The notes under the pieces: model-generated
Seen by the model: only the letters and a program-made list of their open reading frames with translations
The model's database searches: none
Told to the model about the DNA's origin: nothing
Assembly (NCBI GenBank): GCA_944390835.1
Contig: CALXQT010000024.1
Coordinates: forward strand, 3,037 to 67,036
Direction of reading: 5' to 3'
DNA from: an uncultured Alphaproteobacteria bacterium
GTDB taxonomy: Bacteria; Pseudomonadota; Alphaproteobacteria; Rs-D84
Length of the DNA: 64,000 bases
Shown here: positions 1,697 to 59,156 of the stretch, piece by piece
Position numbering within the stretch: the stretch's first letter is position 1
Layout: each line of letters begins with the position of its first letter
Made by a program: the position numbers and the translations under genes

Positions 1697-3313
1697 TTAT
1701 ATTGATATAAGAGTATCTATTTTTTGTTGAGCTTCATCTAGTTTTTTATCTATATTTTTTATTTCTTCAATAATATCTTCACCTGATAATAAACGAGAGG
1801 TTAAATCCTTTTTTTCAGATTGTAGTTTTTCTATATATTTTTGTAACTTTAGTGAAACTATATATTTTTCTGCTGATTTTTCACCCATATTCATATCTGG
1901 TGTGTTTGAATCGAAATCGATACCAAGATTGGCAAGAAAATCACCGTATCTTTCCGCAATTTCTGGATATTTATTTACAATGAAAATAACTGTATTTTTT
2001 GTGATGTCGTCTATCTGAGGTAATTCAATATTTATTATTTTCTGTGATGATTTTTTCCATTTATGCCAAGTATTGAATTTTCTAGAATCATATTCATGTT
2101 CGTATTCATTACGTAAATCAGAGTCTGTAATTTTTTCTATTTTTTGTTTTAAAAATTTTTCAGCTTGTGTTCGTCCACCTGGTGTAGATACATTAAAACC
2201 TGCATTTGCGAGACTCCATAAAAAATCAACCAAAGGTGTTGCCTGATCTATTGTTTTACGCATTGCAGGTTCGCCACTTGTTTTCAAAACATCGTCAGGA
2301 TCTTTTCCGCCTGTAACAAAAGCAAATTTTACTTCTGATGCATCACGCAAAAAAGGTAAAACAATATCGCATGCACGTGCAGCCGCTTTTTGACCAGCGG
2401 CGTCACCATCAAAGCAAAAAATTATATTTCTATTAGATTTACATAATATTGCGATATGATCTTCTGTCAGCGCAGTACCAAGTGGGGCAACTGTTTCAGG
2501 AAAACCGTGACATTGCATTTGTATTGCATCTATTTGACCCTCAACCACTATGCTGCGATTGGCGCGATGAATCGCATCACGTGCAAAATTAAAACCGAAT
2601 ATAGTTTTTCTTTTATGAAATAACTCTGTATCACTGGTATTTATATATTTAGGTTCGCTGCCGTCCAGACTGCGACCAGAAAAAGCAACTATTTGATTGT
2701 GGGCATTAAATATAGGAAACATTAATTTATCGCGAAAAAAGTCGTACATTCCGAAGTCGCCACGTCTGCACAAACCAGTCGCTAATAAAGCATCTTGTTT
2801 AAGATTTATAAATTTATTTGCAATTATATTATTTTTAGGCGCATAACCAATACGATATTTTTTTATCATATCATCTGTAAAACCACGTTTCTTTATATAA
2901 TTTAAAGCAGTTTCACCTTCTGGTTCGAATAATTTTTTCTGATATATATCACAGGCATCAGACATTATTTGATAATAAGATTCTTCTCGCCTAACCTGCT
3001 CTACTGGCTTTGGCTTATAATCAGGCATTTTTAAACCAGCTTGTGCCGCAAGTTCTGTAATAGCTGTTTTGAAATCAACGTTTTCTGATTTCATTACAAA
3101 AGATATAATGTCTCCATGTTCACCACATCCAAAACAATGATAAAACCCTTTGTCTTCATTTACAGAAAAACTTGGTGTTTTTTCATTATGAAACGGACAA
3201 CACCCCCAATAATTTTGACCTTTTTTTACCAATGGAACACGACGACTTATAACATCAACAAGTGACAGACGTTCTCTTAATTCATCGGTAAAATTTCTGT
3301 CATATTTAGCCAT
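1697..3313 (-). CDS. dnaG: DNA primase DnaG
   Basis: CHC2 zinc finger CCPFHNEKTPSF, a TOPRIM region, 538 aa. Confidence 0.9.
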   Translation of the reverse strand: MAKYDRNFTDELRERLSLVDVISRRVPLVKKGQNYWGCCPFHNEKTPSFSVNEDKGFYHCFGCGEHGDIISFVMKSENVDFKTAITELAAQAGLKMPDYKPKPVEQVRREESYYQIMSDACDIYQKKLFEPEGETALNYIKKRGFTDDMIKKYRIGYAPKNNIIANKFINLKQDALLATGLCRRGDFGMYDFFRDKLMFPIFNAHNQIVAFSGRSLDGSEPKYINTSDTELFHKRKTIFGFNFARDAIHRANRSIVVEGQIDAIQMQCHGFPETVAPLGTALTEDHIAILCKSNRNIIFCFDGDAAGQKAAARACDIVLPFLRDASEVKFAFVTGGKDPDDVLKTSGEPAMRKTIDQATPLVDFLWSLANAGFNVSTPGGRTQAEKFLKQKIEKITDSDLRNEYEHEYDSRKFNTWHKWKKSSQKIINIELPQIDDITKNTVIFIVNKYPEIAERYGDFLANLGIDFDSNTPDMNMGEKSAEKYIVSLKLQKYIEKLQSEKKDLTSRLLSGEDIIEEIKNIDKKLDEAQQKIDTLISI

Positions 3314-5574
3314 TATTTATTTGGTGTCCTTTTGAATTTTTTTGTTGTTTTTTTGTTGTTTATTAAGTCAATAGCCGTTTCTAAATCTGGTTTTTCTTTA
3401 ACTGAAACATTTACTCTATTGGATGAAATATACGCACCGTATCTACCAGTTGGATAATAAAATATAGGTTTTCCAGTTACGGGATTTTCACCGATATTTA
3501 TTGGTTCTGACTTTTTTGTCCCATTTTCTAATAGTTCGTTTGCTATATCCAAAGTTATAGTTTCAGAAGTATATTGTTTTGCAGGAACATTCTTTTGCCC
3601 ATCTGTAACGTATGGACCAAATTTACCAATCCTGAAAGAAATTCCATTACCTAAATCAATATTTGTATTTTTGTTTTTTTCTATCTTTTCTTCAGTTTGT
3701 GTTTTTGTATCAATATCGATAAGTTTTTTTGTATAATCACATTTTGGATAGTTTTCACAACCTATAAAAGCCCCATACTTTGATAATTTAATACCAAGTT
3801 TTCCACCACATTTTGGACATTTGTCGTTACCATCAACAAACAAGTGATCGTGCATAACTTCATTAATAGCATTAATTATTTCTGTTGTTTTTACACCCTT
3901 TGCGTCATCTATCATAGATGAGGTTGGAGTCCAGAAATTACGTAAAGCGTCTAACTTATTTTGTTTTCCGTTTGATACGTCATCTAAAGTATCTTCTGTT
4001 TTTGCAGTAAAATTAACATCAACAAGATCTTTAAAGTATTTAGACAAATATGCAGAAAGAACCCAACCACCAGATGTCGGATGAAAACGACGTTGTTTAT
4101 CTTGTTCAACATACTTTCTATCAACTATAGTAGACATAATTGTAGCATATGTAGATGGGCGACCGATACCAAGTTCTTCTAGTTTTTTTACCAACGATGC
4201 TTCTGTGTAACGTGCAGGTGGTTGAGTAAAATGTTGTTCTGGCAATAAATCAATAATTTTGATTTCATCATTAATAGATAACGTGGGTAATTTAGATTCA
4301 CCATTTTCTTCCGCATCATCTTTATCTTCTGTATAAACTCGCATAAAGCCGTCAAATGTACGCGTTGTACCAACAGCATGAAATATAGATTTTTTGTTTC
4401 TTGTTTCTATATCTGCAGATACACTATCAAATTCAGCGTTTGACATTTGACACGCAATTGTACGTTTCCATATTAAATCATATAATTTTGCTTCATCACC
4501 AGTTAGTTGCGTTTCTGGTTTATCAAAATGTGTCGGGCGAATTGCTTCGTGTGCTTCTTGGGCGTTTTTCGATTTCGTTATATATACGTTTGGTGTTTTA
4601 GGTAAAAATGATTCACCATAAGTTTTTGATATGTAAGCACGTATATCATCTATTGCCTCGGCAGATAAGTTTGTTGCATCTGTACGCATATAAGTTATTA
4701 AACCCTGTTCGTATAACTTTTGTGCGGTCGCCATAGTTCTTTTAGAAGAAAAATATAACTTTCTGGCCGCTTCTTGTTGTAATGTACTTGTTGTGAATGG
4801 TGCCGCGGCGCGACGTGACGTTTTCTTTTTATCAATAGAAATTACATTTGCCAAGATTTCTGGTTTGCCAATTTTATCTAAAATATCATTCATCTGTGAA
4901 TGATTTTCTATTGTCATTTTTTCAATTTTTTTACCGTCAACATTAGATAATTGGGCATTAAAAGTAGTGTTTTTTATATTACAAGCTGCGGTTAAAGACC
5001 AATACTCAATCGGTTTGAACGCTTCTATTTCTTTTTCACGATCAACTACTAATTTTACCGCTACAGATTGAACACGACCAGCACTGCGTCCTAAATTTCT
5101 ACGCCATAATAAAGGTGATATACTGAAACCAATTAAATAATCTAATGCGCGCCTAACAAGATACGCATCGACTAAATCTTTATCTATTTCACGTGGGTGT
5201 GCAATTGCATCCATTACAGCTTTTTTTGTAATTTCATGAAACGCTACACGATATACCTTTTTCCCATCCAGTACTTTTTTAGAATTTAATATATCTAAAA
5301 TATGCCAAGCAATAGCCTCTCCTTCTCTATCCGGATCTGATGCAAGATATACAGCATCAGCTTTTTTTAATTCATTTGTTATTTGTTTTATCTGTTTTTC
5401 TTTACCTGGCATAATTTGCCATTGCATAGCAAAGTCTTTTTCAGGGTCAACACTTCCATTTTCTGGAACAAGATCACGCACATGACCGACAGACGCAATA
5501 ACTCGCCATCCTTGGCCTAAGTATTTTTCAATCGTTTTTGCTTTTGAAGGAGACTCTACTATCAACAGGTTCAT
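3313..5574 (-). CDS. topA: DNA topoisomerase I (TopA) with C-terminal Zn-ribbon repeats and a Lys-rich tail
   Basis: N-terminus MNLLIVESPSKAKTIEKYLG is a TOPRIM; C4 zinc ribbons CPKCGGKL...CENYPKC. The true start is probably ATG at 5574, since the track ORF extends 24 codons upstream into rodA. The stop overlaps the dnaG start (TAATG). Confidence 0.9.
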   Translation of the reverse strand: MNLLIVESPSKAKTIEKYLGQGWRVIASVGHVRDLVPENGSVDPEKDFAMQWQIMPGKEKQIKQITNELKKADAVYLASDPDREGEAIAWHILDILNSKKVLDGKKVYRVAFHEITKKAVMDAIAHPREIDKDLVDAYLVRRALDYLIGFSISPLLWRRNLGRSAGRVQSVAVKLVVDREKEIEAFKPIEYWSLTAACNIKNTTFNAQLSNVDGKKIEKMTIENHSQMNDILDKIGKPEILANVISIDKKKTSRRAAAPFTTSTLQQEAARKLYFSSKRTMATAQKLYEQGLITYMRTDATNLSAEAIDDIRAYISKTYGESFLPKTPNVYITKSKNAQEAHEAIRPTHFDKPETQLTGDEAKLYDLIWKRTIACQMSNAEFDSVSADIETRNKKSIFHAVGTTRTFDGFMRVYTEDKDDAEENGESKLPTLSINDEIKIIDLLPEQHFTQPPARYTEASLVKKLEELGIGRPSTYATIMSTIVDRKYVEQDKQRRFHPTSGGWVLSAYLSKYFKDLVDVNFTAKTEDTLDDVSNGKQNKLDALRNFWTPTSSMIDDAKGVKTTEIINAINEVMHDHLFVDGNDKCPKCGGKLGIKLSKYGAFIGCENYPKCDYTKKLIDIDTKTQTEEKIEKNKNTNIDLGNGISFRIGKFGPYVTDGQKNVPAKQYTSETITLDIANELLENGTKKSEPINIGENPVTGKPIFYYPTGRYGAYISSNRVNVSVKEKPDLETAIDLINNKKTTKKFKRTPNK

Positions 5575-22450: not shown

Positions 22451-23023
22451 TTATCTAACAGGAAGAATTTTTATTTGAATCGTGTCTTTTTCTGCGTTTC
22501 CTTTACGAACGGAAAATTCGCAACCGCAATAATTTTGACGGTAAAAGCCTGATTCGCGACCGATTTTTTGCCGTAATGCTTCATCCCATTTAATGGGTTT
22601 ATATTGGTTTCCTAATGCAGATATACCCGCTTTATCAACCTGAGATTGATCTTTGTGTTTAGACACACCGAAAACAGATGCAACAGCGTCATACCCATGT
22701 TCTGAGGCCCATTTTTTTGCGTATTCAAAGCGAAATAGAAAACATTTACTGCAACGAGCCCCCCGTTCTGGTTCTGTTTCCAAACCACGCATTGCATTAC
22801 GCCATGCATCGTGATTGTATTCACCGATGGCGTAGTTTACACCAAGTTTTTCGCAATATTTAATTTGTTCAGAAAGTCTTTTATCATATTCTGTAGATGG
22901 GAAAATATTCGGATTAAAAAATAAAACAATAAAGTCTTCAATATCCGATATTTCCCCGTCTACAAGTTGTTTTATGGCGCCAGCACTGCATGGAGCACAG
23001 CAAGACATCAAAACTAGTTTCAT
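22451..23023 (-). CDS. queH: Epoxyqueuosine reductase QueH (DUF208 family)
   Basis: N-terminal LMSCCAPCS and C-terminal YCGCEFS cysteine motifs typical of QueH; 190 aa. Confidence 0.65.
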   Translation of the reverse strand: MKLVLMSCCAPCSAGAIKQLVDGEISDIEDFIVLFFNPNIFPSTEYDKRLSEQIKYCEKLGVNYAIGEYNHDAWRNAMRGLETEPERGARCSKCFLFRFEYAKKWASEHGYDAVASVFGVSKHKDQSQVDKAGISALGNQYKPIKWDEALRQKIGRESGFYRQNYCGCEFSVRKGNAEKDTIQIKILPVR

Positions 23024-38932: not shown

Positions 38933-39847
38933 TTAGTGCGTTTTTTGATTTGATAAAATTAATTGATTTTTGCCGGCAATTGCACACACTAACGAGTCTA
39001 TGGTGTTTAGCATTTTGTTTTTTTGTTCCTGGCTTGCGGCGTTCCACAAATTAACGCTGCCTGCCCTGCTTTCAAATTGCCATAAGGGGGCCCATAAATT
39101 TAATCGAGGGTTGAATAAAAATTTATTATATTCATTACAAAGATTGTTTGTGACGTATATACCTGGCTTTTGAGTTTGTATCGCATTATAAATGCTTGTT
39201 TTGTATAAACCGCGATTTATTTCGTTTAGAAATTGTTCGGTCGCACATTGAATGATTATATCGGCAATTTGTTGATTATTAAAATCTAGCGGCCATTGTA
39301 AATTTTGTTTTTTTGCCTCGGTAATAATAAGCCGGTCTGCTTTTTTTATAAACTTTCTGTTGCTGGGAATAGGTAATTTCATTTCGTACCTATAATCAAG
39401 CGCTTCTATGATTTCAGCGGCCGGTGCGATGATTTCGCTTTGTGCAGCAATCATACCACGTGTCTTTGGCGAATAGTACCATAGGTTTTTTGTTATGTTG
39501 GCTTTTCGGGCATGCTCTTTTTCGTGTCTTAAAACTAATGTTGCCTGAGCATTGTTGTTGTTACAGAAACGAACGGTTCGAGGATTTGTGCTATTGGTTT
39601 CAAAGTGCTTTATAATTATTTTACCAGAATTAGGTAAAAAAACACCAAGCGCAATTATATCATCGCTATATACCATTTGATCGGTGACCCAAACGGTATC
39701 TGTTTGCACTGATATAGTTTTTTTTAAATATTTAGTCCCAGTATTTTCCGGCTTTTTGGTGTTGTTGTTTAGTGCATATAAACCAAGCCCTGTTCCATAA
39801 CAAAGCAAAACCGTTGCCGCAAAAGAATAAAGGTGCTTAAATTTCAC
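38933..39847 (-). CDS. Hypothetical secreted protein (304 aa) with an HEKEH (HExxH-like) motif
   Basis: N-terminal signal peptide (ATVLLCYGTGLGLYA). Opposite strand to the flanking rsmG and parA. Bounded by the two parS-like palindromes. Confidence 0.5.
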   Translation of the reverse strand: MKFKHLYSFAATVLLCYGTGLGLYALNNNTKKPENTGTKYLKKTISVQTDTVWVTDQMVYSDDIIALGVFLPNSGKIIIKHFETNSTNPRTVRFCNNNNAQATLVLRHEKEHARKANITKNLWYYSPKTRGMIAAQSEIIAPAAEIIEALDYRYEMKLPIPSNRKFIKKADRLIITEAKKQNLQWPLDFNNQQIADIIIQCATEQFLNEINRGLYKTSIYNAIQTQKPGIYVTNNLCNEYNKFLFNPRLNLWAPLWQFESRAGSVNLWNAASQEQKNKMLNTIDSLVCAIAGKNQLILSNQKTH

Positions 39848-43969: not shown

Positions 43970-46522
43970 GTGGCGGACAAAACAAAATTAACCCCAGTTA
44001 TGCAGCAATATGTCAACATGAAGGAAGAAAATCCTGATGCCTTGTTGATGTTTCGTTTGGGGGATTTTTATGAGGCTTTTTTTGACGATGCAAAAATAAT
44101 CAGCCAAAGTTTAGGTTTGGTATTAACACAACGTGGTACAGATGGGGATGGTGAAAATATCCCTATGTGTGGTATTCCATGGCATGCGGCTGACAATTAT
44201 TTTGGGCGTTTGGTTCGCGCTGGATTTCGTGTCGCATTGGTAGAGCAGATGGAAACTCCTGCGGAGGCAAAGGCGCGCGGGCATAAATTTATAGATAGGA
44301 AAATTATTCGAGTTTTAACCCCGGGGACCTTAACGGATGAAAATTTATTAACGCCGAAAAATTCTAATTTTTTAATATCGGTTGTTATGTTAGATGACGG
44401 ACAATTTGATATTGCAGGATGTGATATTTCAACGGGAGAATTCTTTGTCGGAAAGACTGCTGATGTAATTGATGATTTGGTTCGTATAAATCCGGCCGAG
44501 GTTATATATCCGGAATCTTTGGCAGAAAACGAAACAATTATGCATCTGCGTGACGTTTTTAAAACAACACCCGTATACGAGAAATTATATCATCGTGCTG
44601 ATATTGATATCATTGTATCTAATGTTTTTGGTGGGGCTGTAGCACCGGGTGATATCGCTGCTGTAAATTATGATAGCGCCATAAAATTATTAGCTGGTTA
44701 TTTGTTTAATACTCAACGTGGTGCGTCAATAACTTTTCGTGCACCATACGTATATAAATCTGGGCGCCAGCTGTTAATAGATTCTGCAACGTGGAAAAGT
44801 CTAGAAATTGATGCGCCAATAAATGATGGCGGTATATGCTTAACAGACGTTTTAGACAACACAAAAACTGCAGCAGGTGCGCGTAAATTACGTTCTTATT
44901 TGCGTACGTTATCGGGTGATATTGATGAAATAAAGCGTAGACAGGGGCATATAGGTCATTTAATTTTAAATCCAGATGTAATGGGATCTGTTTCTGCTAC
45001 GTTGTCATCTGTACCAGATGTTGGCCGTAGTTTATCTAGATTGTTATCTGGGCGTGGTACACCGCGTGATATGCGGCATATTACAGATTTCTTAATAGAG
45101 TTGCCGAACGCAAAAATGTTAGGGGCACGTCTTGATTCAGGATTAGCAATAAAGTTTTCAGAAATTGATACTCATGATGCGTTGGCTTTAGAACTAGGGT
45201 CTGCCTTAAGTGATGAGCTGCCGACGTTCTTTCGTGACGGTAACGTAATTCGTGACGGTTTTGATGTGTCCTTGGATCATATGCGAGGGCTTGCACACGG
45301 TGCAAAAGAAACAATTGCAGGTATGCAGGCAGAATATGCATCTTCGACGGGTGTTCATAATTTGAAAATTAAATATAACAATATACTTGGGTATTTTATA
45401 GAGGTGCCTAGTGCTCGTGCAGATGCTTTAATGAAACCCGAGTCAGGTTTTATTCACCGTCAAACTATGGCTGGCAATATGCGTTTTACAACGGCACGTT
45501 TAATCGACTTAGATAACGACGTTCGCAGCGCAGCCGAAAAATCTGATGCGATAGAAGCGGAAATAATATCAAGATTAATTGAAAAAATTCGTAATGTTGC
45601 AGATGATTTATTATCAACAGCCGAATTACTGGCAGATTTGGATGTATGGTATTCTTTGGCAACGGTTGCGGATAAATATTCATGGGTTCGACCAGAAATA
45701 ACAAATGACGTTGCATTTGATGTGGTTGGTGGACGACATCCTGTAATTGATTTCGTATTGCGCAGTCGTGGCGATAATTTTGTAAAAAATGATTGTAATT
45801 TAAATGTAAAATCAATCGCTTTATTGACGGGGCCAAATATGGCCGGTAAGTCAACTTATTTACGTCAAAATGCTTTGCTAGTGGTTCTTGCACATCTTGG
45901 GTCTTTTGTTCCAGCTATAAGCGCAACAATCGGTATTTGCGATCAATTGTTTAGTAGAGTGGGGGCCTCTGATAATTTAGCCGCGGGACAATCCACTTTT
46001 ATGGTGGAAATGAGTGAAACTGCAAACATATTAAATCGAGCAACCAAAAATTCTTTCATTATTTTTGACGAAATAGGTCGCGGAACTTCTACGTATGATG
46101 GTATGGCGATTGCCCAAGCCGTATTGGAATACTTAAACGAATTACAACCAAGAACTTTGTTCGCAACACATTATCATGAATTAACTGCGCTGGTTGGGTG
46201 TGGAATAGGGCAGTTACAAAACGTGTCTTGTTTAACAATAGATGTTCGTGAACATAACAATGAAATAATATTTATGCATAAAATTATTTCTGGTGTTGCA
46301 AATCGTTCTTATGGCATACAAGTTGCTAAAATGGCGGGTATGCCAAAGTCGGTTGTCACGAGAGCAGAGGAAGTTTTGGCTGGTTTAGAGTCTCATAATG
46401 AAATGCTGTGTGAAGATGTTAGACCAGTTGAAAACAAAAATGGGAGTTTTAAAGGGGAGAAAAAAGAGGCAAAAGTATCGCAACCCCAAAACGGGAAAAA
46501 GCAATTGAATTTATTTGGATGA
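43970..46522 (+). CDS. mutS: DNA mismatch repair protein MutS
   Basis: N-terminal mismatch-binding domain (GDFYEAFFDDA), Walker A GPNMAGKST; 850 aa. Confidence 0.9.
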   Translation: MADKTKLTPVMQQYVNMKEENPDALLMFRLGDFYEAFFDDAKIISQSLGLVLTQRGTDGDGENIPMCGIPWHAADNYFGRLVRAGFRVALVEQMETPAEAKARGHKFIDRKIIRVLTPGTLTDENLLTPKNSNFLISVVMLDDGQFDIAGCDISTGEFFVGKTADVIDDLVRINPAEVIYPESLAENETIMHLRDVFKTTPVYEKLYHRADIDIIVSNVFGGAVAPGDIAAVNYDSAIKLLAGYLFNTQRGASITFRAPYVYKSGRQLLIDSATWKSLEIDAPINDGGICLTDVLDNTKTAAGARKLRSYLRTLSGDIDEIKRRQGHIGHLILNPDVMGSVSATLSSVPDVGRSLSRLLSGRGTPRDMRHITDFLIELPNAKMLGARLDSGLAIKFSEIDTHDALALELGSALSDELPTFFRDGNVIRDGFDVSLDHMRGLAHGAKETIAGMQAEYASSTGVHNLKIKYNNILGYFIEVPSARADALMKPESGFIHRQTMAGNMRFTTARLIDLDNDVRSAAEKSDAIEAEIISRLIEKIRNVADDLLSTAELLADLDVWYSLATVADKYSWVRPEITNDVAFDVVGGRHPVIDFVLRSRGDNFVKNDCNLNVKSIALLTGPNMAGKSTYLRQNALLVVLAHLGSFVPAISATIGICDQLFSRVGASDNLAAGQSTFMVEMSETANILNRATKNSFIIFDEIGRGTSTYDGMAIAQAVLEYLNELQPRTLFATHYHELTALVGCGIGQLQNVSCLTIDVREHNNEIIFMHKIISGVANRSYGIQVAKMAGMPKSVVTRAEEVLAGLESHNEMLCEDVRPVENKNGSFKGEKKEAKVSQPQNGKKQLNLFG

Positions 46523-47031
46523 AAGGAAATTATATGTACGTTCGCCCTATAATTGTTTTTAAGACGTCTTTTTACGAACCATCGTATTGTGAATTTAGAA
46601 ATATTAGCTCTTTGCAGAATTTTTTAAAAAATTTTGATTTTATGCGACCGCATAAGATTAGTCGATTATCAACGGGGTTGCCTATATTTCGATTAGGGGT
46701 TAAATACGAATGTTTCATGGAGGGTTATGTCTTTAGATCTGACGTTAAATGGCTTAGTGCTTTTTTATGTGGGCGGTACTGCAAAAAAGACAAAAATGGA
46801 AAAATGGTGGTAAGTGTACCATTTGATAAAATTATAGAAAAAGATAATGATAGTACAGTTTATCGTGAATATAAAGAAATCCCTTTTCATAAAGATATGG
46901 TAGACGCTGTAATTAATGTTGATAAATTACGTCAGGTTTGGCCGAAAAATGTTACTATGTCAGAAATGGCAAAATTTTTAAAGTCTGTTGAGAAAAACAA
47001 AAATAAAATATGTAAAAAAAGGGTTCGTTAA
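46519..47031 (+). CDS. Hypothetical 170-aa protein between mutS and truB
   Basis: No recognisable motif. Overlaps the mutS stop by 4 nt. Basic C-terminus. Confidence 0.35.
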   Translation: MKGNYMYVRPIIVFKTSFYEPSYCEFRNISSLQNFLKNFDFMRPHKISRLSTGLPIFRLGVKYECFMEGYVFRSDVKWLSAFLCGRYCKKDKNGKMVVSVPFDKIIEKDNDSTVYREYKEIPFHKDMVDAVINVDKLRQVWPKNVTMSEMAKFLKSVEKNKNKICKKRVR

Positions 47032-50928: not shown

Positions 50929-51005
50929 GGATGTTTAGCTCAGTTGATTAGAGCATCTCGTTTACACCGAGAGGGTCGGGGGTTTGAGTCCCTCAACATC
51001 CACCA
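50929..51005 (+). tRNA. tRNA-Val (anticodon TAC)
   Basis: GGATGTT/AACATCC acceptor, D-arm GCTC..GAGC, anticodon loop TTTACAC, T-arm GGGGG TTTGAGT CCCTC, encoded CCA. Confidence 0.85.
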
Positions 51006-51036
51006 AGAAAAATGCCATCCGAAAGGATGGCTTTTT
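51006..51036 (+). terminator. Terminator AAAAATGCCATCCGAAAGGATGGCTTTTT after tRNA-Val
   Basis: Perfect 8-bp stem plus T-run. Confidence 0.7.
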
Positions 51037-51037
51037 A

Positions 51038-51781
51038 CTACCGTTTATGTTGATGTAACCACAATAAAGATTTGGTTATGTAATCATTAGCCCTATTTGC
51101 ATCAAATTGTATCGTACCTGGTTTCTTTAAATTAAATTCGGCATCAATCCAGGTTTTGTAAATATATGGTACAACTGTTGATATCTTATCAAGGTTTTCA
51201 AATACATTTTCACCACATAAACCACCTGCATATCCATGACAGTGTCCTGCAAAATGCGGTTCTTCCCATTTATCTGGGCGCGAACCTGTGCCATAAGAAG
51301 AATCGTACAGTAGAGAAAAAGGAACATCTGTTCGGTACAATTTTTTTATGTATGACATAACAATTGGACCATTGTTTAATGAAAATATGAATTCCTTATC
51401 AGGGTGAGATTTTATTATATTTCTGATCGCATCTGTTTGTTGCAAGTTCATATTATTATCTATGTTTAATTGCCAACGGCGTATAATTGGTTTCCCTGTT
51501 TTGTCGCGCATGTTTAACCACTGTTGTATTTCTGGTGAAATTTTGTTGTTACAAAAATCTATGCACCAATCGTGGGTTAAATGCAGCGCCATGTTTATGT
51601 CTGATATATCTTGAGAGTGTAATAATGTTTCAAACCAGTCGTATTGCGGTTTACCCTTTTTTATATAGGAATTAGCAATAACACCGATTTCAATTAATTT
51701 TGATTGTTTAGCAAGTTTTATTAAACTATCGATAGAAGTTGACTCATCTGGTCCAGAGCATGTTATATAACGTAAATCCAT
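51038..51781 (-). CDS. PRAI(TrpF)-fold TIM-barrel protein, paralogue 1 (divergent)
   Basis: N-terminus MDLRYITCS (compare TrpF MxVKICGIT, catalytic Cys). RRWQLNID (compare AVQLHGDE), FSLLYDSSYGTGS..WEEP (compare LLDTK.GGSGKTFDW), GYAGGLCGENV (compare AGGLNPENV), WIDAEFNL (compare VDVSSGVE). Confidence 0.6.
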   Translation of the reverse strand: MDLRYITCSGPDESTSIDSLIKLAKQSKLIEIGVIANSYIKKGKPQYDWFETLLHSQDISDINMALHLTHDWCIDFCNNKISPEIQQWLNMRDKTGKPIIRRWQLNIDNNMNLQQTDAIRNIIKSHPDKEFIFSLNNGPIVMSYIKKLYRTDVPFSLLYDSSYGTGSRPDKWEEPHFAGHCHGYAGGLCGENVFENLDKISTVVPYIYKTWIDAEFNLKKPGTIQFDANRANDYITKSLLWLHQHKR

Positions 51782-51937
51782 TTTCTACCTTTTCAAATTT
51801 TTATCTATACTTTTAGCATATTAGGACAAAAATAATAACCCTGTCAATTCTCAGAATAAGAACAAAATGTCATTTCTTTTGATTGCGGTTTAGGTTTATA
51901 GTATTTATACTATAATCATATAAAAGGAGTCATAGAT

Positions 51938-52585
51938 ATGAAAAAATTATTTGCTTTAATTGGGATTATTTCGATGTTAAGTGCATGCGCAACAGTTAAT
52001 CCTTATACTGGTGAAGCGCAAACATCAAAGGCAGTATGGGGTACGGCTATTGGTGCCGCAACTGGCGCTGCAACTGGTGCGCTGGTAGCAAAAAATAGCG
52101 GTGCAGGTGCTTTGGTTGGTGGTTTGGCTGGTGCCGCAATAGGGGGTGGGGCCGGTTATTATTTGGATGTACAAGAGGCAGAATTACGTCAAGAATTGGC
52201 TTCAACTGGTGTCAGTGTCGTACGCGATGGAGACAGTATACGTTTAATTATGCCGGGTAATATAACGTTTAAAACAGATTCTTCTGATATAAATGCTGGA
52301 TTCTATGCAACATTAAATTCTGTTGCCAAAGTATTAAACAAGTATGACGATTCTACGGTTATGGTGTTGGGATATACTGATAGTACCGGTAGCGCAGAAT
52401 ACAATCAATCTTTGTCTCTACAGCGTGCAAATGCCGTGGCGGCATATTTACAGGGGCAGGGCGTAAAAGCGTCTAGGTTTGAAATTATGGGGCTAGGATC
52501 GTCTAATCCGATAGCGTCTAATTCTACTGTTGAAGGGCGCCAGCAAAATCGACGTGTGGAGATAAAAATTATTCCAAACAAATAA
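51938..52585 (+). CDS. OmpA-family lipoprotein with a glycine-zipper region (YiaD-like)
   Basis: Lipobox MLSAC; GAATGAATGALVA...GGLAGAAIGGGAG glycine zipper; OmpA-C motif NQSLSLQRANAVAAYL. Confidence 0.8.
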   Translation: MKKLFALIGIISMLSACATVNPYTGEAQTSKAVWGTAIGAATGAATGALVAKNSGAGALVGGLAGAAIGGGAGYYLDVQEAELRQELASTGVSVVRDGDSIRLIMPGNITFKTDSSDINAGFYATLNSVAKVLNKYDDSTVMVLGYTDSTGSAEYNQSLSLQRANAVAAYLQGQGVKASRFEIMGLGSSNPIASNSTVEGRQQNRRVEIKIIPNK

Positions 52586-52612
52586 AAAACCCGCATAAGC
52601 GGGTTTTATTTT
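52586..52612. terminator. Bidirectional terminator AAAAAACCCGCATAAGCGGGTTTTATTTT
   Basis: Hairpin between the ompA-like gene(+) and PRAI-like paralogue 2(-). Confidence 0.7.
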
Positions 52613-53358
52613 TGTCTTTGTTCCCAATTTAAAGCATTTGTTATATACTTTACTGCTTTATCTAAATCAAAAATCCTGGTTCCTGGTTTCATTAATCGGC
52701 CCTCAGCGTCAATCCATATGTCATCTCTATCTCCTGCAACTTTGGCGATTTTATTAAGGTTTTCTGTAACATTTTCAGGCGATAAACCACCAGCATAACC
52801 CTGGGAATGCGTTTTATAAACAGGTTCGTCCCACGATGTCGGGCTGATCCCGGCCCCATAAGAGGCGTCAAACAGTAAGGAAAACTTGGCCCCTGTTTTA
52901 TTAAGCTCTTTAATAAAATCTTGTAAATCGTGGTTTGAGTTATAAGGAAAAATGAATTCTTGATAAGGAAATGATTTGATGATTTTAGATATTTGGTCAG
53001 GATTTGGTATTATTGTTCCGTCCCCCAAGTTTAACTGCCAACGTTTTATCATTGGCATACCTGTTGATTTATGTTTCCTCTGTAATAAATTATTTATTTC
53101 TTCTGGGGTGTTCCCTAAACAAAAATCAGAGCACCAATTGTAATTTATATGAATTGCGATATTTAATGGTGTGTGACAAGCATCTGAAATGTTTAAAAGG
53201 CGGTTTAACCATAGATTCCTTGGCATACCAGTGCACATACAAGGGCTGTGAGCCTGAATCCCCAATTCTACTTTTTTTGACCCTTTTAATAAATCTACCG
53301 CTTTTTCCGCCGGAACGTTTTCTCTGATATCAGAACATGTTATGTATCGTAGTTTCAT
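52606..53358 (-). CDS. PRAI(TrpF)-fold TIM-barrel protein, paralogue 2
   Basis: Same motif set (MKLRYITCS, KRWQLNLG, FSLLFDASYGAGIS..W, HSQGYAGGLSPENVTENLNKIAKVAGDRDDIWIDAEG). Start taken at the second Met (53358) by homology with paralogues 1 and 3. Confidence 0.6.
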   Translation of the reverse strand: MKLRYITCSDIRENVPAEKAVDLLKGSKKVELGIQAHSPCMCTGMPRNLWLNRLLNISDACHTPLNIAIHINYNWCSDFCLGNTPEEINNLLQRKHKSTGMPMIKRWQLNLGDGTIIPNPDQISKIIKSFPYQEFIFPYNSNHDLQDFIKELNKTGAKFSLLFDASYGAGISPTSWDEPVYKTHSQGYAGGLSPENVTENLNKIAKVAGDRDDIWIDAEGRLMKPGTRIFDLDKAVKYITNALNWEQRQK

Positions 53359-53369
53359 GAAAGATCTTT

Positions 53370-54113
53370 TTATTTTGTCTTTTGCCATTTTAATGCGGCA
53401 GTTATATATTGTTTTGCTTTATTTACGTCGAATTTTTTTGTGTCAGGATTTTTTAATTTACCTTCGGCGTCAATCCATATGTCATCTCTATCTCCTGCAA
53501 CCTTCGCGATTTTATTAAGGTTTTCTGTAACATTTTCTGGCGAAAGTCCACCCGCGTATCCTTGTGAATGTGCATCGAATAAAGGTGGACCCCAATTCTT
53601 TGCTAATTTACCTGCCCCGCCAGAAGTATCGTATAAAACAGAAAAGTTTATACCCGTTTTATCCAATCTATGTATTCTATTATATTCAGATGAACCATAT
53701 TGAAAAATGAATTCATTATTAGAAAATGTTTTTAATAATTTTGCAATTTCAGCAGTATTAAACAATTTCGTTTTGCTGCCATAAATATTTATTTGCCACC
53801 GTCGAATTACAGGAGAACCATCTGTACGGGTTAAAAGCAACCAATTTTTTATTTCTGGTGCTAGTATCCCTCTACAAAAATTATCACACCATTCCATGTT
53901 TACATGGACCGCTAAATTAGGAGCAGTTGGCATGTATAAACTTTCCCTTAAAAGTCGGTTAAACCATTGATTGCGTGGCATATCAGCAGACATTTTAGAA
54001 GGGTGGGCCTGTACTGCTATTTCTACAATTGGATCCAATTGTGATAAACGTAATAACGTTTCTACAGCGACGTTTTCCCTTGGGTCAGAACAGGTTATAT
54101 AACGTAACTTCAT
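53370..54113 (-). CDS. PRAI(TrpF)-fold TIM-barrel protein, paralogue 3; start overlaps the rlmN stop (ATGA)
   Basis: MKLRYITCS, RRWQINIYG, FSVLYDTSGGAGKLAKNW, HSQGYAGGLSPENV..., WIDAEGKL. The 37-aa C-terminal block is identical to paralogue 2. Confidence 0.6.
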   Translation of the reverse strand: MKLRYITCSDPRENVAVETLLRLSQLDPIVEIAVQAHPSKMSADMPRNQWFNRLLRESLYMPTAPNLAVHVNMEWCDNFCRGILAPEIKNWLLLTRTDGSPVIRRWQINIYGSKTKLFNTAEIAKLLKTFSNNEFIFQYGSSEYNRIHRLDKTGINFSVLYDTSGGAGKLAKNWGPPLFDAHSQGYAGGLSPENVTENLNKIAKVAGDRDDIWIDAEGKLKNPDTKKFDVNKAKQYITAALKWQKTK

Positions 54114-55216
54114 TTTGTACCTTTTGTGTTATTTAAACGTAATTGACCGCAGGCACTCCCTATATCCTGACCCCGTTCGCGACGGATTCTTGTATGAATA
54201 CCGTTTTTTATTAAAATGTCTTGAAATCTGTGTACGGCGTTACCAGATGGTGCGGCAAAATCCCTTTCATCAACCGCATTCCAAGGTATTAGATTTACCA
54301 TACAGTTTTTACCTTTTAGCAGGGTAGATAATTTCTCTGCATGTTCTGGTGTGGAATTTAATAACTCGGTTTCATCGTCTTTGTTTTTTCTGCCAAGTAA
54401 TATATACTCTATCATTAATTGTCGGTTATGCAGATTTGAAAATTCTGTTGCTGCGTCTAATACATCTTCTAGTTTATATTTATTATTTATTGGCATAATC
54501 TCGCTGCGTAATTCATTGGTTGGTGCATGCAACGATATTGCTAAATTGATAGGCCGCCCCCATTTGGTTAGTTCTTTAATTCCAGGAACTATTCCACAAG
54601 TAGAAACAGTTATCTTTCGCCATCCGATACCCATATCAGAATTGGCTCGTTCTATAAAACCAATTACATTTTCAATGTTTTGCAGCGGTTCCCCTGTACC
54701 CATTATAACGATGTGAGAAACGTCATTATTATTTGCGTCACCATTTGGGTGTATCGGTTTGTCTGAAAATTTATCGTTACGCAATTCCCATTGTGCAACT
54801 AGAATTTGAGAATATATTTCATTTACGGTTAAATTGCGCTTCAATCCTAATAAAGTACTGGCACAGAACTTACACCCCATGGCGCAACCAGCTTGAGAAC
54901 TGACACAGACACTATTACCATAACTAGTTCGCATTAAGACGCATTCAATCTGTTCGCAATCATTTAATTCAAGTAAAAATTTCGTCGTTTGACCGTCTGA
55001 AGAGTCTAATCGTTTTATTATACGAACCGGTAACGTTTGAGCAATACAATCCAGGTCTAGGCGCAATTTTTCTGGTAAATTTTTCATAGATTTGAAATCT
55101 GGGGCGCCCCGATTTAACCATTCACGAATTTGTTTCGCACGAAATTTTGGTTGTCTAAGCTTTGTTATAAACTCAACTAATTCTGTATCTGTTAAATTAA
55201 ATAATATAGTTTTCAT
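54110..55216 (-). CDS. rlmN: Dual-specificity RNA methyltransferase RlmN (radical SAM; 23S rRNA m2A2503 / tRNA m2A37)
   Basis: Radical-SAM CAMGCKFC motif plus the additional conserved Cys (SACGQ); 368 aa. Confidence 0.9.
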   Translation of the reverse strand: MKTILFNLTDTELVEFITKLRQPKFRAKQIREWLNRGAPDFKSMKNLPEKLRLDLDCIAQTLPVRIIKRLDSSDGQTTKFLLELNDCEQIECVLMRTSYGNSVCVSSQAGCAMGCKFCASTLLGLKRNLTVNEIYSQILVAQWELRNDKFSDKPIHPNGDANNNDVSHIVIMGTGEPLQNIENVIGFIERANSDMGIGWRKITVSTCGIVPGIKELTKWGRPINLAISLHAPTNELRSEIMPINNKYKLEDVLDAATEFSNLHNRQLMIEYILLGRKNKDDETELLNSTPEHAEKLSTLLKGKNCMVNLIPWNAVDERDFAAPSGNAVHRFQDILIKNGIHTRIRRERGQDIGSACGQLRLNNTKGTK

Positions 55217-56034
55217 AATGCGTATCTATCATCATTTATAACAACAACTGCTTTGCGTCGTAGTTGTTTAAGTTGTTGATCTGCAACGAACATGGCCTGT
55301 TTGAATAGAGTGTTTTGTTCTATCATATCATCCAACTTTCCGTATTCTGAGGTCTTTTTAGTATCACATACCAATAATACAGAACGATCTATAACTGGCG
55401 ACCAAGTTAATTTTGGCAATGTAGCAACGCGTTCGCGAATGTCTTCGGCAAGTTCATATTGCAAAGCGGTAAATTTTTGTGGCATCCCACCCAAATTTTG
55501 CGCCATTTGCATCGCTTCATCACAACTTTTTGGTTTCGTTAGTTTGGCCGCTACGTCTGCAGGTATATCAACCAAACGAATCAGCGTCATTTCTATTGGT
55601 AAACCTTGTTCTCGTGCAATATCTGCGCGTTCTGCGGCAACGTCTGCTTCTGTTACTTCTATAGTTGGCAGAATGGTTCTTGCCACGATTATTTGCCATG
55701 CTATTTCTGCACGCATCGCAGATTTTGCCATTTGTTTTTCTGTTTCTGATAAATCCCCCAGATTCATTTTTTTCAGTTCTTTTTCTACGGTATCGTCGTC
55801 TGGTATCGCATTGAAATTTTTTGCGTAGGCTAACTTTACGTTGTCGTCAATAATGTTTTGTAAAGCAATCCGACGATTATCTGTAGCCGCGTTACCCTGT
55901 TTTGCCATAAGAGTTGTTCGTGCTGTTATATCTGTATCCGTTATTGGTTCCCCGTTAACAGATGCAACGACAGATGCGGCGTTTACGGATTGAATACAAA
56001 ACAAAGAAAATATGATCGCAAATATTCTTTTCAT
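55213..56034 (-). CDS. SurA N-terminal-domain periplasmic chaperone-like protein (no PPIase domains)
   Basis: Signal peptide, SVVASVNGEPIT start typical of SurA, 273 aa; located downstream of lptD as surA is. Confidence 0.55.
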   Translation of the reverse strand: MKRIFAIIFSLFCIQSVNAASVVASVNGEPITDTDITARTTLMAKQGNAATDNRRIALQNIIDDNVKLAYAKNFNAIPDDDTVEKELKKMNLGDLSETEKQMAKSAMRAEIAWQIIVARTILPTIEVTEADVAAERADIAREQGLPIEMTLIRLVDIPADVAAKLTKPKSCDEAMQMAQNLGGMPQKFTALQYELAEDIRERVATLPKLTWSPVIDRSVLLVCDTKKTSEYGKLDDMIEQNTLFKQAMFVADQQLKQLRRKAVVVINDDRYAL

Positions 56035-56052: not shown

Positions 56053-58065
56053 TTAATATTTCTGACCATTTATACTCATTCCAAATTTGAATTGAAAGGT
56101 TGTATTACCAACGTAGTCATACTTAATAGCATTATCTTTACGATATTGTAGCGATAAATAATAACATGGGTGCGTATAGAATATCCCACCTGTATGGCGT
56201 TGGAATCTATCATACGTAGCATTATATACTGCGTTAAAACGTATTGCCCATCTATCAGATAACTGTATGCCGACGCCCCCCATAATTTCGTTTATATTTT
56301 CACCCTCTGTATATTCATCAATAAATTGCTGTGACCACATATGGCTGATGTTAATAAAGTTTTTCGATTTCCAGAGATATGCGGATGTTTCTATGTGTCG
56401 TAAAGATAAATCAGATTGATCAAATCTGAAACGAGAGGATATTCTTATCCATTTTGAGTTATTATAACTAATTCTACCAACATAATCAGATGCACCATTA
56501 TGAAAGCCGCTATTTAAATTTGTATCGGCGCGTTCGTCAAAATCATATGTTTGACCTAAAAACAGTTCAAACATTTTTCCAGTAGTATTAAATGCGGTAT
56601 AGCGAACACCGTAATCGGCATATGTCCCATTTTCCCATAGATCTAATCCAGCAAACCGGTTATCAGAAAATAACGTTGTGTCTGATAAAAAAGCACCAGC
56701 TGAATCGTTATTTAATGTGAATTGGTCTTCATCTGTTTTGCGCATTATCGTTAATCTTGCCCGCGGTTCTATAACCTGTGTCCATTTAGAAGATGGTTTA
56801 AATAACGGCAAACCCCATTCTACGTAACCACTTGGCAAGAAACGATCTTTTAAACCAGAAAATTCAGAGGCATCAATCATTTCTGAATTATTAAAATTAT
56901 ACACGTCATATCTAGTAGATAAACTGGCCGTTATTCTATTTCCTCCCCATAAGGTCCAAGGTGATACAATACGAGCGTCACCTATTAAACGTTGAGAAGC
57001 CGTCCCATCACCAGATATACCCAAAACATCGGCATCTAATACAAGATAGGTTTCTTTAAAGAACGGGGTGGTTTGATATGTTGCTCTTATGTTCGGTAAG
57101 ATGTTACCAGATGGGGCTGTATATGTCCCCGTTGATCTACGTAATTCTTGGAATATATGCGCATCTGCAACAACGTAACTGGATTGACCGAAAACTTCTA
57201 ACTTTGCACCAGAATCCAAATATGGCTGATCATCATAAAATCCATACCTCTGCATGAATGTTTTATCAGATGCACGTTCTAAGAAGACGGTTGCGCGTGT
57301 GTATTCTCCGAGTTCTATAACGTCATTATTAAATATGTACCAACGATTTTCTCCGGCTTTGTTGTGAGTAAATGCACCGTGCGTTCGATATTGTGAATGG
57401 TCATAATTTAACCGATGTTCCATTTGGAACAATGGATTCTCTTGAGTTAAATATGATGTCGTTATAGTCAAGTCATGGGTGTCAGAAAAATTTATGTATA
57501 TAGGTACATTTATTTGCGTTCCCATGTTATTGGTTGATTCAAAATCGGGCATTAAAAATCCCGTCTTGTATTTTACGCTTGGGTCTGGCATTTCATAAAA
57601 AGGCAGCCAAAACACTGGTATATTATATGTCCAAAGTACCGAGTTAAAGAACTTTAACATATGGGTGTCTATATTATGAATAATTTTAGACGCCTTTATT
57701 TCCCAAGCGTTTCCGTATGCGTCGCAATCATCACATGCGGTAAACATCGCTTTATAAGCAATTGTTTTTTCACCTTCATGAACGACATTATTTGATTCGA
57801 CATAGACATGATCACCCAGCCATAATTTTATATCATCACCAGATAGTTCTTGTCCGTTTTTGGATAAATAAGAATCCGTCAACGTCATACGCTGACCGGT
57901 TTGATTAATTATTTCTGTGTTACCAGATGTTTTTATCGTTTCTGTTTTTACATCATATTCTATTTTATCAGAAGTTATTGTTTTTGGGGTTTCTATATCA
58001 AGAGACACGGCTTGTGCATAAGCCGGAATACAACTTAATAAAAGAAACAGATTAAACTTTCTCAT
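56053..58065 (-). CDS. lptD: LPS-assembly outer-membrane protein LptD
   Basis: Signal peptide, OstA-like N-domain plus a large beta-barrel (Tyr/Asn-rich); synteny lptFG-lptD-surA. Confidence 0.75.
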   Translation of the reverse strand: MRKFNLFLLLSCIPAYAQAVSLDIETPKTITSDKIEYDVKTETIKTSGNTEIINQTGQRMTLTDSYLSKNGQELSGDDIKLWLGDHVYVESNNVVHEGEKTIAYKAMFTACDDCDAYGNAWEIKASKIIHNIDTHMLKFFNSVLWTYNIPVFWLPFYEMPDPSVKYKTGFLMPDFESTNNMGTQINVPIYINFSDTHDLTITTSYLTQENPLFQMEHRLNYDHSQYRTHGAFTHNKAGENRWYIFNNDVIELGEYTRATVFLERASDKTFMQRYGFYDDQPYLDSGAKLEVFGQSSYVVADAHIFQELRRSTGTYTAPSGNILPNIRATYQTTPFFKETYLVLDADVLGISGDGTASQRLIGDARIVSPWTLWGGNRITASLSTRYDVYNFNNSEMIDASEFSGLKDRFLPSGYVEWGLPLFKPSSKWTQVIEPRARLTIMRKTDEDQFTLNNDSAGAFLSDTTLFSDNRFAGLDLWENGTYADYGVRYTAFNTTGKMFELFLGQTYDFDERADTNLNSGFHNGASDYVGRISYNNSKWIRISSRFRFDQSDLSLRHIETSAYLWKSKNFINISHMWSQQFIDEYTEGENINEIMGGVGIQLSDRWAIRFNAVYNATYDRFQRHTGGIFYTHPCYYLSLQYRKDNAIKYDYVGNTTFQFKFGMSINGQKY

Positions 58066-59156
58066 TTTTTAAATAATATAAATAATATCCCGCCTAATGT
58101 TGCAAAAATACCTAATGCCAGCAATAAAAACTGCGTTACACTACCGACCATATTAGATAAAGACATAAATAAAGACATAACTACCGCCATTGCAGCAACT
58201 GCAAGCGCAGGAGCAAAACTTGCCCGGCGTCGTAATAGTGACGAACGCAATAATATGGTTGCACACAATGCAGCAAGTATCAAATTCATAAGCGGGCCTA
58301 ATAATCTGGTGCATAATTCTGCTAGCACGACCTGGTGTTGTTTTTCCGAAGGTGAGTCTAATACAGACATTAACAATAAAGACGTGGGTACGCGCCGAAC
58401 ACGAAATGAATTTTCACCTTCTTTATCTTCAACGTTTAAGTCCATATCGAAATTATCAAATGTGCCGGTTGTCAAAGTTTCGCTTTTTGACTGTAAAGCA
58501 CCGTTTTTCATTACTATAGATAATCCCCTTGGCGTAGAAACCAACTTACCTTTTTCAGCAAATATAGTTATTGGGGAATTTTCATCTCTCATATCAGATA
58601 ACATTACTTGGCTTAAATCATGCCCAGATACCTTATCAACATAAACAACCAAACCATCTGCTAGTTCTGTAAATGCAGATTCTTGTAACTTCAGGTGAGC
58701 TAAACCATACCTTAGATTCCATTGGGTTGAATAAAATAATGCCTGGCTTTGTGGGACAACCCATATATTTAACATAAAATGTAATATGGTCAGCACTAAA
58801 GCCATCGCTAAAGCAGGACGAGCCAACTGTTTTGGTGATAATCCAGATGACGTCATAACAGTTATCTCATTATCTGATATAAGTTTATTATATATAAATA
58901 TAATCGCGATAAATGTGACGAATGGTATGATAATGGATACTATAAAAGGGACCATAAGGATAGTCATACCCAAAAAACTAGTTATATCTATGCCATAGTT
59001 TAATAAGAACTTCATCATGGACATAATTTGTAACATCCAAGCCAGTCCAGTTAATACCAATAACAGCATTATAAAAATCGCGACCAGCTGACGCGTAAAA
59101 TATCTATTTATTATTTTCATAATTTGAAGTATAAAGCCCAAAAGCGATAGCGTCAA
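58062..59156 (-). CDS. LPS export ABC permease of the LptF/LptG (YjgP/YjgQ) family
   Basis: 6-TM permease with a periplasmic beta-jellyroll. The stop overlaps the lptD start. Confidence 0.7.
   Translation of the reverse strand: MTLSLLGFILQIMKIINRYFTRQLVAIFIMLLLVLTGLAWMLQIMSMMKFLLNYGIDITSFLGMTILMVPFIVSIIIPFVTFIAIIFIYNKLISDNEITVMTSSGLSPKQLARPALAMALVLTILHFMLNIWVVPQSQALFYSTQWNLRYGLAHLKLQESAFTELADGLVVYVDKVSGHDLSQVMLSDMRDENSPITIFAEKGKLVSTPRGLSIVMKNGALQSKSETLTTGTFDNFDMDLNVEDKEGENSFRVRRVPTSLLLMSVLDSPSEKQHQVVLAELCTRLLGPLMNLILAALCATILLRSSLLRRRASFAPALAVAAMAVVMSLFMSLSNMVGSVTQFLLLALGIFATLGGILFILFKK

Follow-up and report, generated by a model that had tools for sequence, protein, structure and literature searches.

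What is the role of three neighbouring genes that recall trpF, the gene encoding phosphoribosylanthranilate isomerase (PRAI), but stand outside any trp operon? The genes lie in a 64-kb stretch of contig CALXQT010000024.1 from an uncultured Alphaproteobacteria bacterium (hereafter the window). They occupy the minus strand as open reading frame (ORF) A (51038-51781, 247 amino acids), ORF B (52606-53358, 250 amino acids) and ORF C (53370-54113, 247 amino acids), each encoding a PRAI-related barrel paralogue; ORF A, of a type designated A-type, is the most divergent, and ORFs B and C represent the B-type and C-type. An earlier reading of the sequence (the original prediction) had described them as an expanded PRAI-fold family recruited to a function other than tryptophan synthesis. 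Our analysis agrees on both the fold family and the non-tryptophan role: ORFs A-C are probably paralogues of an unannotated, PRAI-derived (βα)8 enzyme family with a phosphosugar-binding role outside tryptophan metabolism, and they are almost certainly not TrpF.

Three paralogues and their relationship to PRAI

The three reading frames lie where they had been predicted, are intact, with zero frameshifts or internal stops, and contain all of the motifs originally quoted, namely LRYITCS, RRWQ(L/I)N, G(G/T)G..W, GYAGGL(S/C)(P/G)ENV and WIDAE. The mechanical call for ORF B is longer (52606-53388, 260 amino acids); homologues agree with an independent gene call, made on identical ENA contigs, in placing its start at Met11 ('MKLRYITCS...'), 11 nt past the ORF C stop. 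The proteins can be aligned end to end, and each matches the family profile, which itself includes ORFs A, B and C, with E values of 1e-99 to 1e-119; judged by these comparisons, their paralogy is far beyond chance. The mutual identity of 35-45% given previously holds for A-B (43.5%) and A-C (40.3%), whereas B-C is higher (53.3%), partly because of a C-terminal stretch of 37 amino acids (HSQGYAGGLSPENVTENLNKIAKVAGDRDDIWIDAEG) that is identical between ORF B codons 184-220 and ORF C codons 182-218. At the DNA level, 97 of the 111 nt of this stretch are identical, and about 70 consecutive nt within it contain two mismatches. Since whole-gene nucleotide identity between B and C is 61%, this near-identical tract looks like the result of local gene conversion, and in one close relative (L003) the B and C copies are homogenised across the same segment. 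A search of the window for further diverged copies of the barrel gene found none.

None of the three ORFs gave a Pfam or NCBIfam match above threshold or a sequence match in the PDB, and their matches to DUF6953, DUF6794, PdxJ (12.5 bits) and a phosducin-like family (E 0.13) were dismissed as noise. The AlphaFold2 model of ORF C, built from a 40-sequence alignment (pLDDT 94.1, pTM 0.91), contains eight β-α units, and on this model the fold of the family is a (βα)8 barrel. The expected resemblance to TrpF structures was recovered in part: in a Foldseek search of the PDB with this model, Thermococcus PRAI came first, but weakly (E 2.4e-4, TM 0.53/0.61) and with generic barrels close behind. The BFVD library of viral structures returned no match at E<=1e-3. 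Eight strands and a phosphate site in the β7/β8 loops, the features that define the ribulose-phosphate-binding (βα)8 barrel superfamily, are both present in the family. Structure places the family among these barrels without choosing PRAI, and it is the sequence profiles that choose PRAI.

The PRAI signature had been called diagnostic, which the profile searches did not bear out, as no match to PF00697 (gathering threshold 22.7 bits) was obtained in ORFs A, B or C at E<=1 and significant similarity to PRAI is confined to β6-α8. Membership of the PRAI-fold family was nevertheless supported from several sides. Among 40 close relatives, PRAI was the sole Pfam family matched more than twice (8 members, sub-threshold, best E 0.012). 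Only more distant, phage-type members pass the PF00697 threshold, for instance P0200 with 30.6 bits over profile positions 115-192, and a precomputed PF00697 match is present in 16 of the top 120 proteins of the wider family described below. Family alignments were also compared by hhalign with an alignment of true TrpFs, comprising those of E. coli, an NDM-linked plasmid gene, Thioclava, Listeria and Staphylococcus, to which T. maritima and Jonesia were later added. The wide-family alignment matched the five TrpFs with a probability of 91% (E 9e-7), and a 356-sequence family alignment matched the seven TrpFs with a probability of 94% (E 1e-7) locally over β6-α8 and of 95.7% (E 4e-9, 202 columns) globally. 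Set against the E. coli TrpF domain by itself, the close-family profile gave no useful signal (probability 0.8%). Where the alignment is confident, D162 ('LYDxS') pairs with the general-acid Asp126 ('LLDTK') of T. maritima TrpF, and the motifs GGAG..W, GYAGGLSPEN and WIDAEG pair with GGSGKTFDW, SGGLNPEN and VDVSSG, respectively. At the level of sequence, these alignments show that the family and PRAI are homologous across β6-α8, with the phosphate site kept (GYAGG on β7, the β8 loop and the GGxG..W loop), and that the β6 Asp of the family is the retained general acid of PRAI; this D162 is kept in 96 of the 97 copies compared (79 species plus the window).

The Cys of LRYITCS had been taken for the catalytic Cys of TrpF, an assignment that seems to be shifted by one residue. 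The extended alignment, whose per-column confidence is low in its N-terminal part, pairs TrpF Cys7 with Ser9 of the ORFs (Thr in phage-type members) and Cys8 of the ORFs with TrpF Ile6. Position 8 is Cys in 100% of the 97 Rs-D84 copies, compared with I, V, C or F in 73 phage-type sequences, and the flanking positions are T (position 7) and S/T (position 9) in both branches without exception. The pairing and the hydrophobic character of position 8 in phage-type members suggest that Cys8 is probably a buried residue and that the canonical general base of TrpF is probably missing from the family, which weakens the Amadori-type chemistry proposed earlier. The invariant polar set of the family consists of T7, S/T9, E31, H70, R105, Q107, N109, D162, S164, D215 and E217. 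Rs-D84 and phage-type members differ at several other pocket positions (D10/G, Q35/L, H37/S, R47/S, N72/C and G218/T), so that function may differ between the two branches.

Distribution in Rs-D84 and in phages

A search with ORF C recovered 508 homologues of about 250 amino acids. No Pfam domain was listed for the best 120 of them, and the few named homologues are hypothetical proteins from metagenome-assembled genomes (MAGs) of gut and rumen Alphaproteobacteria. A scan of one genome per species yielded 230 relatives, of which the best 79 loci were used for synteny and copy counts; they belong to uncultured Alphaproteobacteria and 'Candidatus Enterousia', and the lineage is the order Rs-D84. 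Genomes of this order are reported to be smaller than 1 Mb and to lack amino-acid, nucleotide and lipid pathways, and a partner-dependent lifestyle has been suggested for it (PMC12306168). The linkage to rlmN noted in the original prediction proved to be conserved: in 76 of the 79 species the barrel gene directly follows lptD-surA-like-rlmN in the same orientation. Multicopy clusters likewise recur in related genomes; 66 sources have a single copy at the locus, 8 have two and 5 have three.

In a neighbour-joining tree of the copies, calculated with no bootstrap, two deep clades are formed by the B-type and C-type sequences. Two-copy genomes hold one of each, in an order after rlmN that varies between genomes, and single-copy genomes hold either B-type or C-type. 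As B and C of the window fall in these separate deep clades, the paralogues appear to be old; their clade positions, together with the low nucleotide identity given above, rule out a recent tandem duplication of B and C. Outside the window, A-type copies were detected in just its three nearest relatives (L001-L003). This type evolves fastest, with 51-58% identity versus 78% for C in the same genome pairs. Judged from the tree and these identities, the B and C lineages are ancient and the third, A-type lineage is young and fast-evolving. The A-type differs in phosphate-loop residues of β7 and β8 (SP to CG, and G to F/Y, respectively), and ORF A keeps all residues that are invariant across the family. 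Active-site and pocket residues are 96-100% conserved in the 97 copies, which fits three working enzymes.

Divergent cellular paralogues were also observed away from rlmN: P0157 (L180, 3645-4433) adjoins Dus, TrkA and a type IV secretion system (T4SS) coupling protein, and P0165 (L182, 1989-2768) adjoins Ffh. The family in each genome may be bigger than its rlmN-linked copies alone. A 3.6-kb contig with the order lptD-surA-like-rlmN-barrel (L013, CAZJGX010000080.1) was deposited in a 'Muribaculaceae' MAG, a placement that is probably a binning error.

The genes turned out not to be peculiar to one lineage. A profile search of 1.84 billion representative proteins, clustered at 50% identity, returned 3,510 clusters at E<=1e-3, of which 2,229 also reach E<=1e-10, with a length of about 235 amino acids in members at E 1e-30 to 1e-40 and the consensus VTxTGADD...VEWGIL...HxCG...RxQLNxHG...LFDxSxGxG...GYAGGLxPxN...IWIDAET. 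Phage carriers include published huge-phage genomes, a 723-kb contig with a T4 gp13-like gene and a 41-kb Microcystis phage in which the barrel gene adjoins RecT and YqaJ, and the barrel is found on 162 IMG/VR contigs of 7-570 kb. By these profile matches, the family of ORFs A-C is one branch of a large, unannotated family found mainly in phages and jumbo phages. Neither the three ORFs nor four phage-type members matched PHROGs v4 or PADLOC-DB v2, and some wide-family members are auto-annotated as 'phosphoribosylanthranilate isomerase' by the Joint Genome Institute (JGI). In the literature on jumbo phages, RNA repair and NAD-ADP-ribose (NAD-ADPr) metabolism, no description of a TrpF-like or PRAI-like phage family or TIM-barrel family was found, and a barrel of this kind is also absent from comparative surveys devoted to jumbo phages and to viral NAD-ADPr systems.

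No dominant phage neighbour emerged when 1,363 ORFs from 80 viral loci were clustered by blastp, the largest cluster being HNH endonucleases in 11 of the 80 loci. The census of neighbours included tyrosyl-tRNA synthetase (TyrRS) in four loci and Nuc_deoxyri_tr2 in two, plus Thg1, RlaP, cpYpsA and RNA ligase. Individual contexts hint at NAD/ADP-ribose or RNA-repair metabolism. For instance, P0383 (L083) is accompanied by RNA ligase, PTH2, NADAR+tRNA_bind and NAD-dependent DNA ligase, P0323 (L174) by KptA/Tpt1, WGR-PARP and ADP-ribosylglycohydrolase, P0299 (L179) by phosphoribosyl pyrophosphate (PRPP) synthetase, cREC, RNA ligase and PARP, P0348 by RNA ligase and AAA_33, and P0366 by HAD_SAK_2. 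In P0229 (L169, 74-1804; 576 amino acids), the barrel is fused to CTP_transf_like (NMNAT-type) and AAA_28 (NadR-type kinase) domains, and the gene adjoins another encoding NMNAT+NUDIX (2658-3638 of the same locus); besides this single NadR-like fusion, no extra domains were found in longer family members. The L174, L179 and L083 contigs are large and phage-like, with NAD/ADPr and RNA-repair genes within a few kb of the barrel; one of them was binned as a Thorarchaeota MAG and may be a mis-binned virus.

Weighing the possible functions

If the family is a PRAI-derived enzyme outside tryptophan synthesis, its conserved phosphate site would bind a ligand of the 5-phosphopentose or N-ribosyl-5-phosphate type. 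Catalysis would proceed by acid/base chemistry unlike the Cys/Asp Amadori rearrangement, possibly assisted by a metal that could be held by E31, H70, D162, D215 and E217. In the partner-dependent bacteria, the enzymes may salvage or interconvert a ribosyl-phosphate compound that the cell imports, and the paralogues may differ in substrate preference. Several points weigh against this reading. The structure search, which uses a predicted model, does not separate PRAI from ribulose-phosphate 3-epimerase (RPE) or PdxJ. The N-terminal two thirds of the family align to PRAI at low per-column confidence, and for that reason the mapping of the catalytic Cys to Ser/Thr is inferred. The identity of the ligand is a guess from the conserved phosphate site, and the genome-wide absence of trp genes is taken from a paper about related MAGs, not from this genome.

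The least probable of the alternatives is a genuine TrpF, acting as a PRA (phosphoribosylanthranilate) isomerase in tryptophan synthesis or anthranilate salvage. Such a role would agree with the remote PRAI homology, in which the general-acid Asp and the phosphate site are kept, and with the JGI auto-annotation of a few wide-family members, but it is at odds with the failure of all three ORFs to match PF00697, with the Ser/Thr found at the catalytic Cys position in the profile alignment, and with the presence of three copies and a wide phage distribution, which would be unexpected. Using E. coli TrpA, TrpB, TrpC-F and TrpD plus five TrpFs as tblastn queries (TrpE was not among them), no TrpA, TrpB, TrpC/F or TrpD was found in the window (best E about 0.9), as had been stated earlier, or in the 79 syntenic loci. 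Given this result and the reported lack of amino-acid biosynthesis in the clade (PMC12306168), a tryptophan role for ORFs A-C is very unlikely. A different possibility is that the family processes a phosphoribosyl metabolite derived from NAD+ or ADP-ribose, such as nicotinamide or nicotinic acid mononucleotide (NMN/NaMN), ADP-ribose, ADPr-1''-phosphate or Nudix-released ribose-5-P; in phages the barrel would work alongside genes for NAD salvage and RNA repair, and in Rs-D84 it would serve to salvage cofactors. The P0229 fusion and its NMNAT+NUDIX neighbour, the neighbourhoods of P0383, P0323, P0299, P0348 and P0366, and the neighbour census all favour this idea. NMN and PRA are, moreover, both N-(5-phosphoribosyl) compounds. 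However, the fusion is a single example, and a recognisable RNA-repair or NAD/ADPr gene was present in just 13 of 80 IMG/VR loci (±6 kb, by a low-sensitivity single-seed phmmer search with no background frequency). Jumbo phages often carry such genes in any case (PMC9503650), a 2022 survey of viral NAD-ADPr systems makes no mention of such a barrel, and the Pfam scan of window ORFs showed no NAD gene close to the locus. In addition, the pocket differences between the two branches mean that a function in phages may not transfer to Rs-D84, and we regard this explanation as unlikely. The same doubt attaches to a more ambitious proposal, in which a PRAI-derived family without the Cys base and with a new, invariant E/H/R/Q/N/D/E pocket would perform new chemistry on an N-ribosyl-5-phosphate or ADP-ribose-derived metabolite, as a component of phage NAD+/ADPr and RNA-repair islands and as a core, duplicated salvage enzyme in Rs-D84.

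Two further alternatives draw on the position of the genes in Rs-D84. The barrel could be a partner of RlmN, involved in the same RNA modification or in the disposal of a radical-SAM by-product (a sugar derived from 5'-deoxyadenosine), which would be in keeping with its location directly downstream of rlmN in nearly all species, with the overlap of the rlmN stop and the ORF C start in the window, and with the tRNA-related genes (TyrRS, Thg1 and tRNA_bind) near some phage-type members. We consider this improbable. As rlmN belongs to a long housekeeping string, lptFG-lptD-surA-like-rlmN, of compact genomes below 1 Mb, its adjacency is weak evidence, and the conserved place of the barrel points to co-expression without proving a shared pathway. 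ORF A, P0157 and P0165 are transcribed elsewhere, and radical-SAM genes were not seen adjoining phage-type members. Intermediates of 5-deoxyribose salvage carry their phosphate on C1, not C5, and the isomerase involved has a different fold. More improbable again is an envelope phosphosugar isomerase or epimerase that is expressed together with the Lpt genes and might, for instance, replace the non-orthologous KdsD (arabinose-5-phosphate isomerase) in the synthesis of 3-deoxy-D-manno-octulosonic acid (Kdo) and lipopolysaccharide (LPS). The same-strand string with lptF/G and lptD points in this direction, and E31, H70, D162, D215 and E217 could form an RPE-type metal site, but the basis of the idea is purely contextual and it leaves both the phage distribution and the 1-3 paralogues unexplained.

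We therefore retain the reading of ORFs A-C as PRAI-derived, phosphosugar-binding enzymes, belonging to a distinct, unnamed family within the lineage of PRAI and ribulose-phosphate-binding barrels. About 3,500 clusters make up this family, for which neither a solved structure nor a model in Pfam, NCBIfam, PHROGs or PADLOC exists. Notably, some of the smallest alphaproteobacterial genomes retain and duplicate it, and they share it with large phages. Its retention, even in duplicate, in bacteria reported to lack complete amino-acid, nucleotide and fatty-acid pathways argues for an important function, and the frequent occurrence of the family in large phages suggests that it takes part in the metabolism of nucleotides or cofactors during infection. 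As a natural TrpF-type scaffold in which the phosphate site and the acid catalyst are kept and the rest of the pocket is changed, the family also bears on the evolution of (βα)8 isomerases. The JGI annotations as 'phosphoribosylanthranilate isomerase' could yield false tryptophan-pathway calls in metabolic reconstructions.

Gene neighbourhood and comparison with known barrels

The co-directional string on the minus strand begins with an lptF/lptG-family permease gene (58062-59156; PF03739 LptF_LptG on the identical ENA-contig gene), followed by lptD for the LPS assembly outer-membrane protein (56053-58065; PF04453 LptD; syntenic in 76 of 79 related loci), a gene for a SurA-N-like periplasmic protein of 273 amino acids (55213-56034), and rlmN of the radical-SAM rRNA/tRNA adenine-C2 methyltransferase family (54110-55216; RlmN_N and Radical_SAM domains), whose TGA stop overlaps the ATG of ORF C (ATGA; 'AAAATGAAG'). 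The SurA-N-like assignment is weak (PF13624 SurA_N_3, 21.9 bits versus a gathering threshold of 27.2), and the Pfam scan reported no peptidyl-prolyl isomerase (PPIase, rotamase) family in the protein; the place of the gene between lptD and rlmN is conserved, and it may encode a minimal SurA-like chaperone. In E. coli the order is lptD-surA-pdxA, with surA in the position of this gene; an analogy with PdxJ prompted by that order was rejected, as the similarity is at noise level.

An OmpA-family lipoprotein gene with a glycine-zipper lies between B and A on the plus strand (51938-52585; PF00691 E 1e-24, Gly-zipper domains, lipobox-like N-terminus), interleaved as originally described, and this arrangement is also present in L001-L003. 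Hairpins with T-runs on both strands were detected between ORF B and the OmpA gene (52586-52607; 9-bp stem, 5 G-C pairs) and between tRNA-Val and the ORF A stop (51014-51031; 7-bp stem, 5 G-C pairs). The tRNA-Val(TAC) gene (50929-51005, plus strand; ARAGORN, Rfam tRNA 66 bits) does adjoin the barrel genes, but it had been placed upstream of them and is instead convergent with ORF A, 3' to 3' across the second hairpin. A promoter-like site, TTGACA-18-TAATAT, is located upstream of ORF A (51818-51847, minus strand; 10/12 consensus match), but such sites are no commoner in the region than in shuffled sequence. The hairpins and the promoter-like site come from consensus scans only; the hairpins are probably bidirectional terminators between convergent genes in a very compact genome. 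Gene overlaps, spacing, the hairpin sites and the site upstream of A suggest that the likely transcription units are lptFG-lptD-surA-like-rlmN-C-B and a monocistronic ORF A.

All ORFs scanned in other parts of the window are housekeeping genes. They encode products involved in replication and repair (DnaG, topoisomerase I, MutS, UDG, RecF, an HhH-GPD glycosylase and ParB), cell shape and wall (RodA, PBP2, MreB and MreC), translation and RNA (PheS, an IleRS-type synthetase, MnmG, RsmG, TruB, PNPase, NusA, IF-2, Der, YchF and QueH) and lipid metabolism (FabG, FabD and GpsA). The original prediction connected the barrel genes with queH; the gene is real, but at a distance of 30 kb the link was rejected as context. 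QueH, the epoxyqueuosine reductase (22451-23023, minus strand; PF02677, E 4e-43), adjoins fabD and fabG near mnmG, and its presence suggests that the organism completes queuosine on tRNA despite a reduced genome. No Pfam match was obtained for the ORFs at 38933-39847 (minus strand, 304 amino acids) and 46519-47031 (plus strand, 170 amino acids), the latter located between mutS and truB.

Among known barrels, RPE (1tqx, 2fli) is set apart by the lack of any RPE Pfam profile match in 60 family members scanned. The similarity to pyridoxine 5'-phosphate synthase, PdxJ (1ho1, 6rg0; NF003623), was seen in ORF C only (12.5 bits versus a cut-off of 347, E 0.068) and is limited, at noise level, to the generic phosphate-binding region. 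HisA and PriA, the ProFAR isomerase and the dual-substrate isomerase, are farther from the family than PRAI in structure and sequence alike. The closest described family to ORFs A-C is TrpF/PRAI (PF00697; T. maritima 1lbm/1nsj, E. coli TrpC-F 1pii). Both have the (βα)8 barrel and share profile similarity over β6-α8, LxD with the general-acid Asp, GGxG..(D)W, AGGL.P.N and the β8 D-x-S/E loop, and the QL(N/H) motif on β4 is likely to be common to them. In contrast, ORFs A-C are about 40 residues longer than TrpF and score under any Pfam reporting level, and the family has Ser/Thr aligned at the catalytic Cys and invariant residues that are missing in PRAI, namely E31 (β2), H70 (β3), R105/Q107/N109 (β4) and E217 (β8). 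Unlike TrpF, it is also multi-copy, widespread in phages and found outside a trp operon context. ORFs A-C thus part from TrpF in their Pfam scores, their pathway context and probably the catalytic Cys, and they agree with TrpF in their fold, their acid Asp and their phosphate site.

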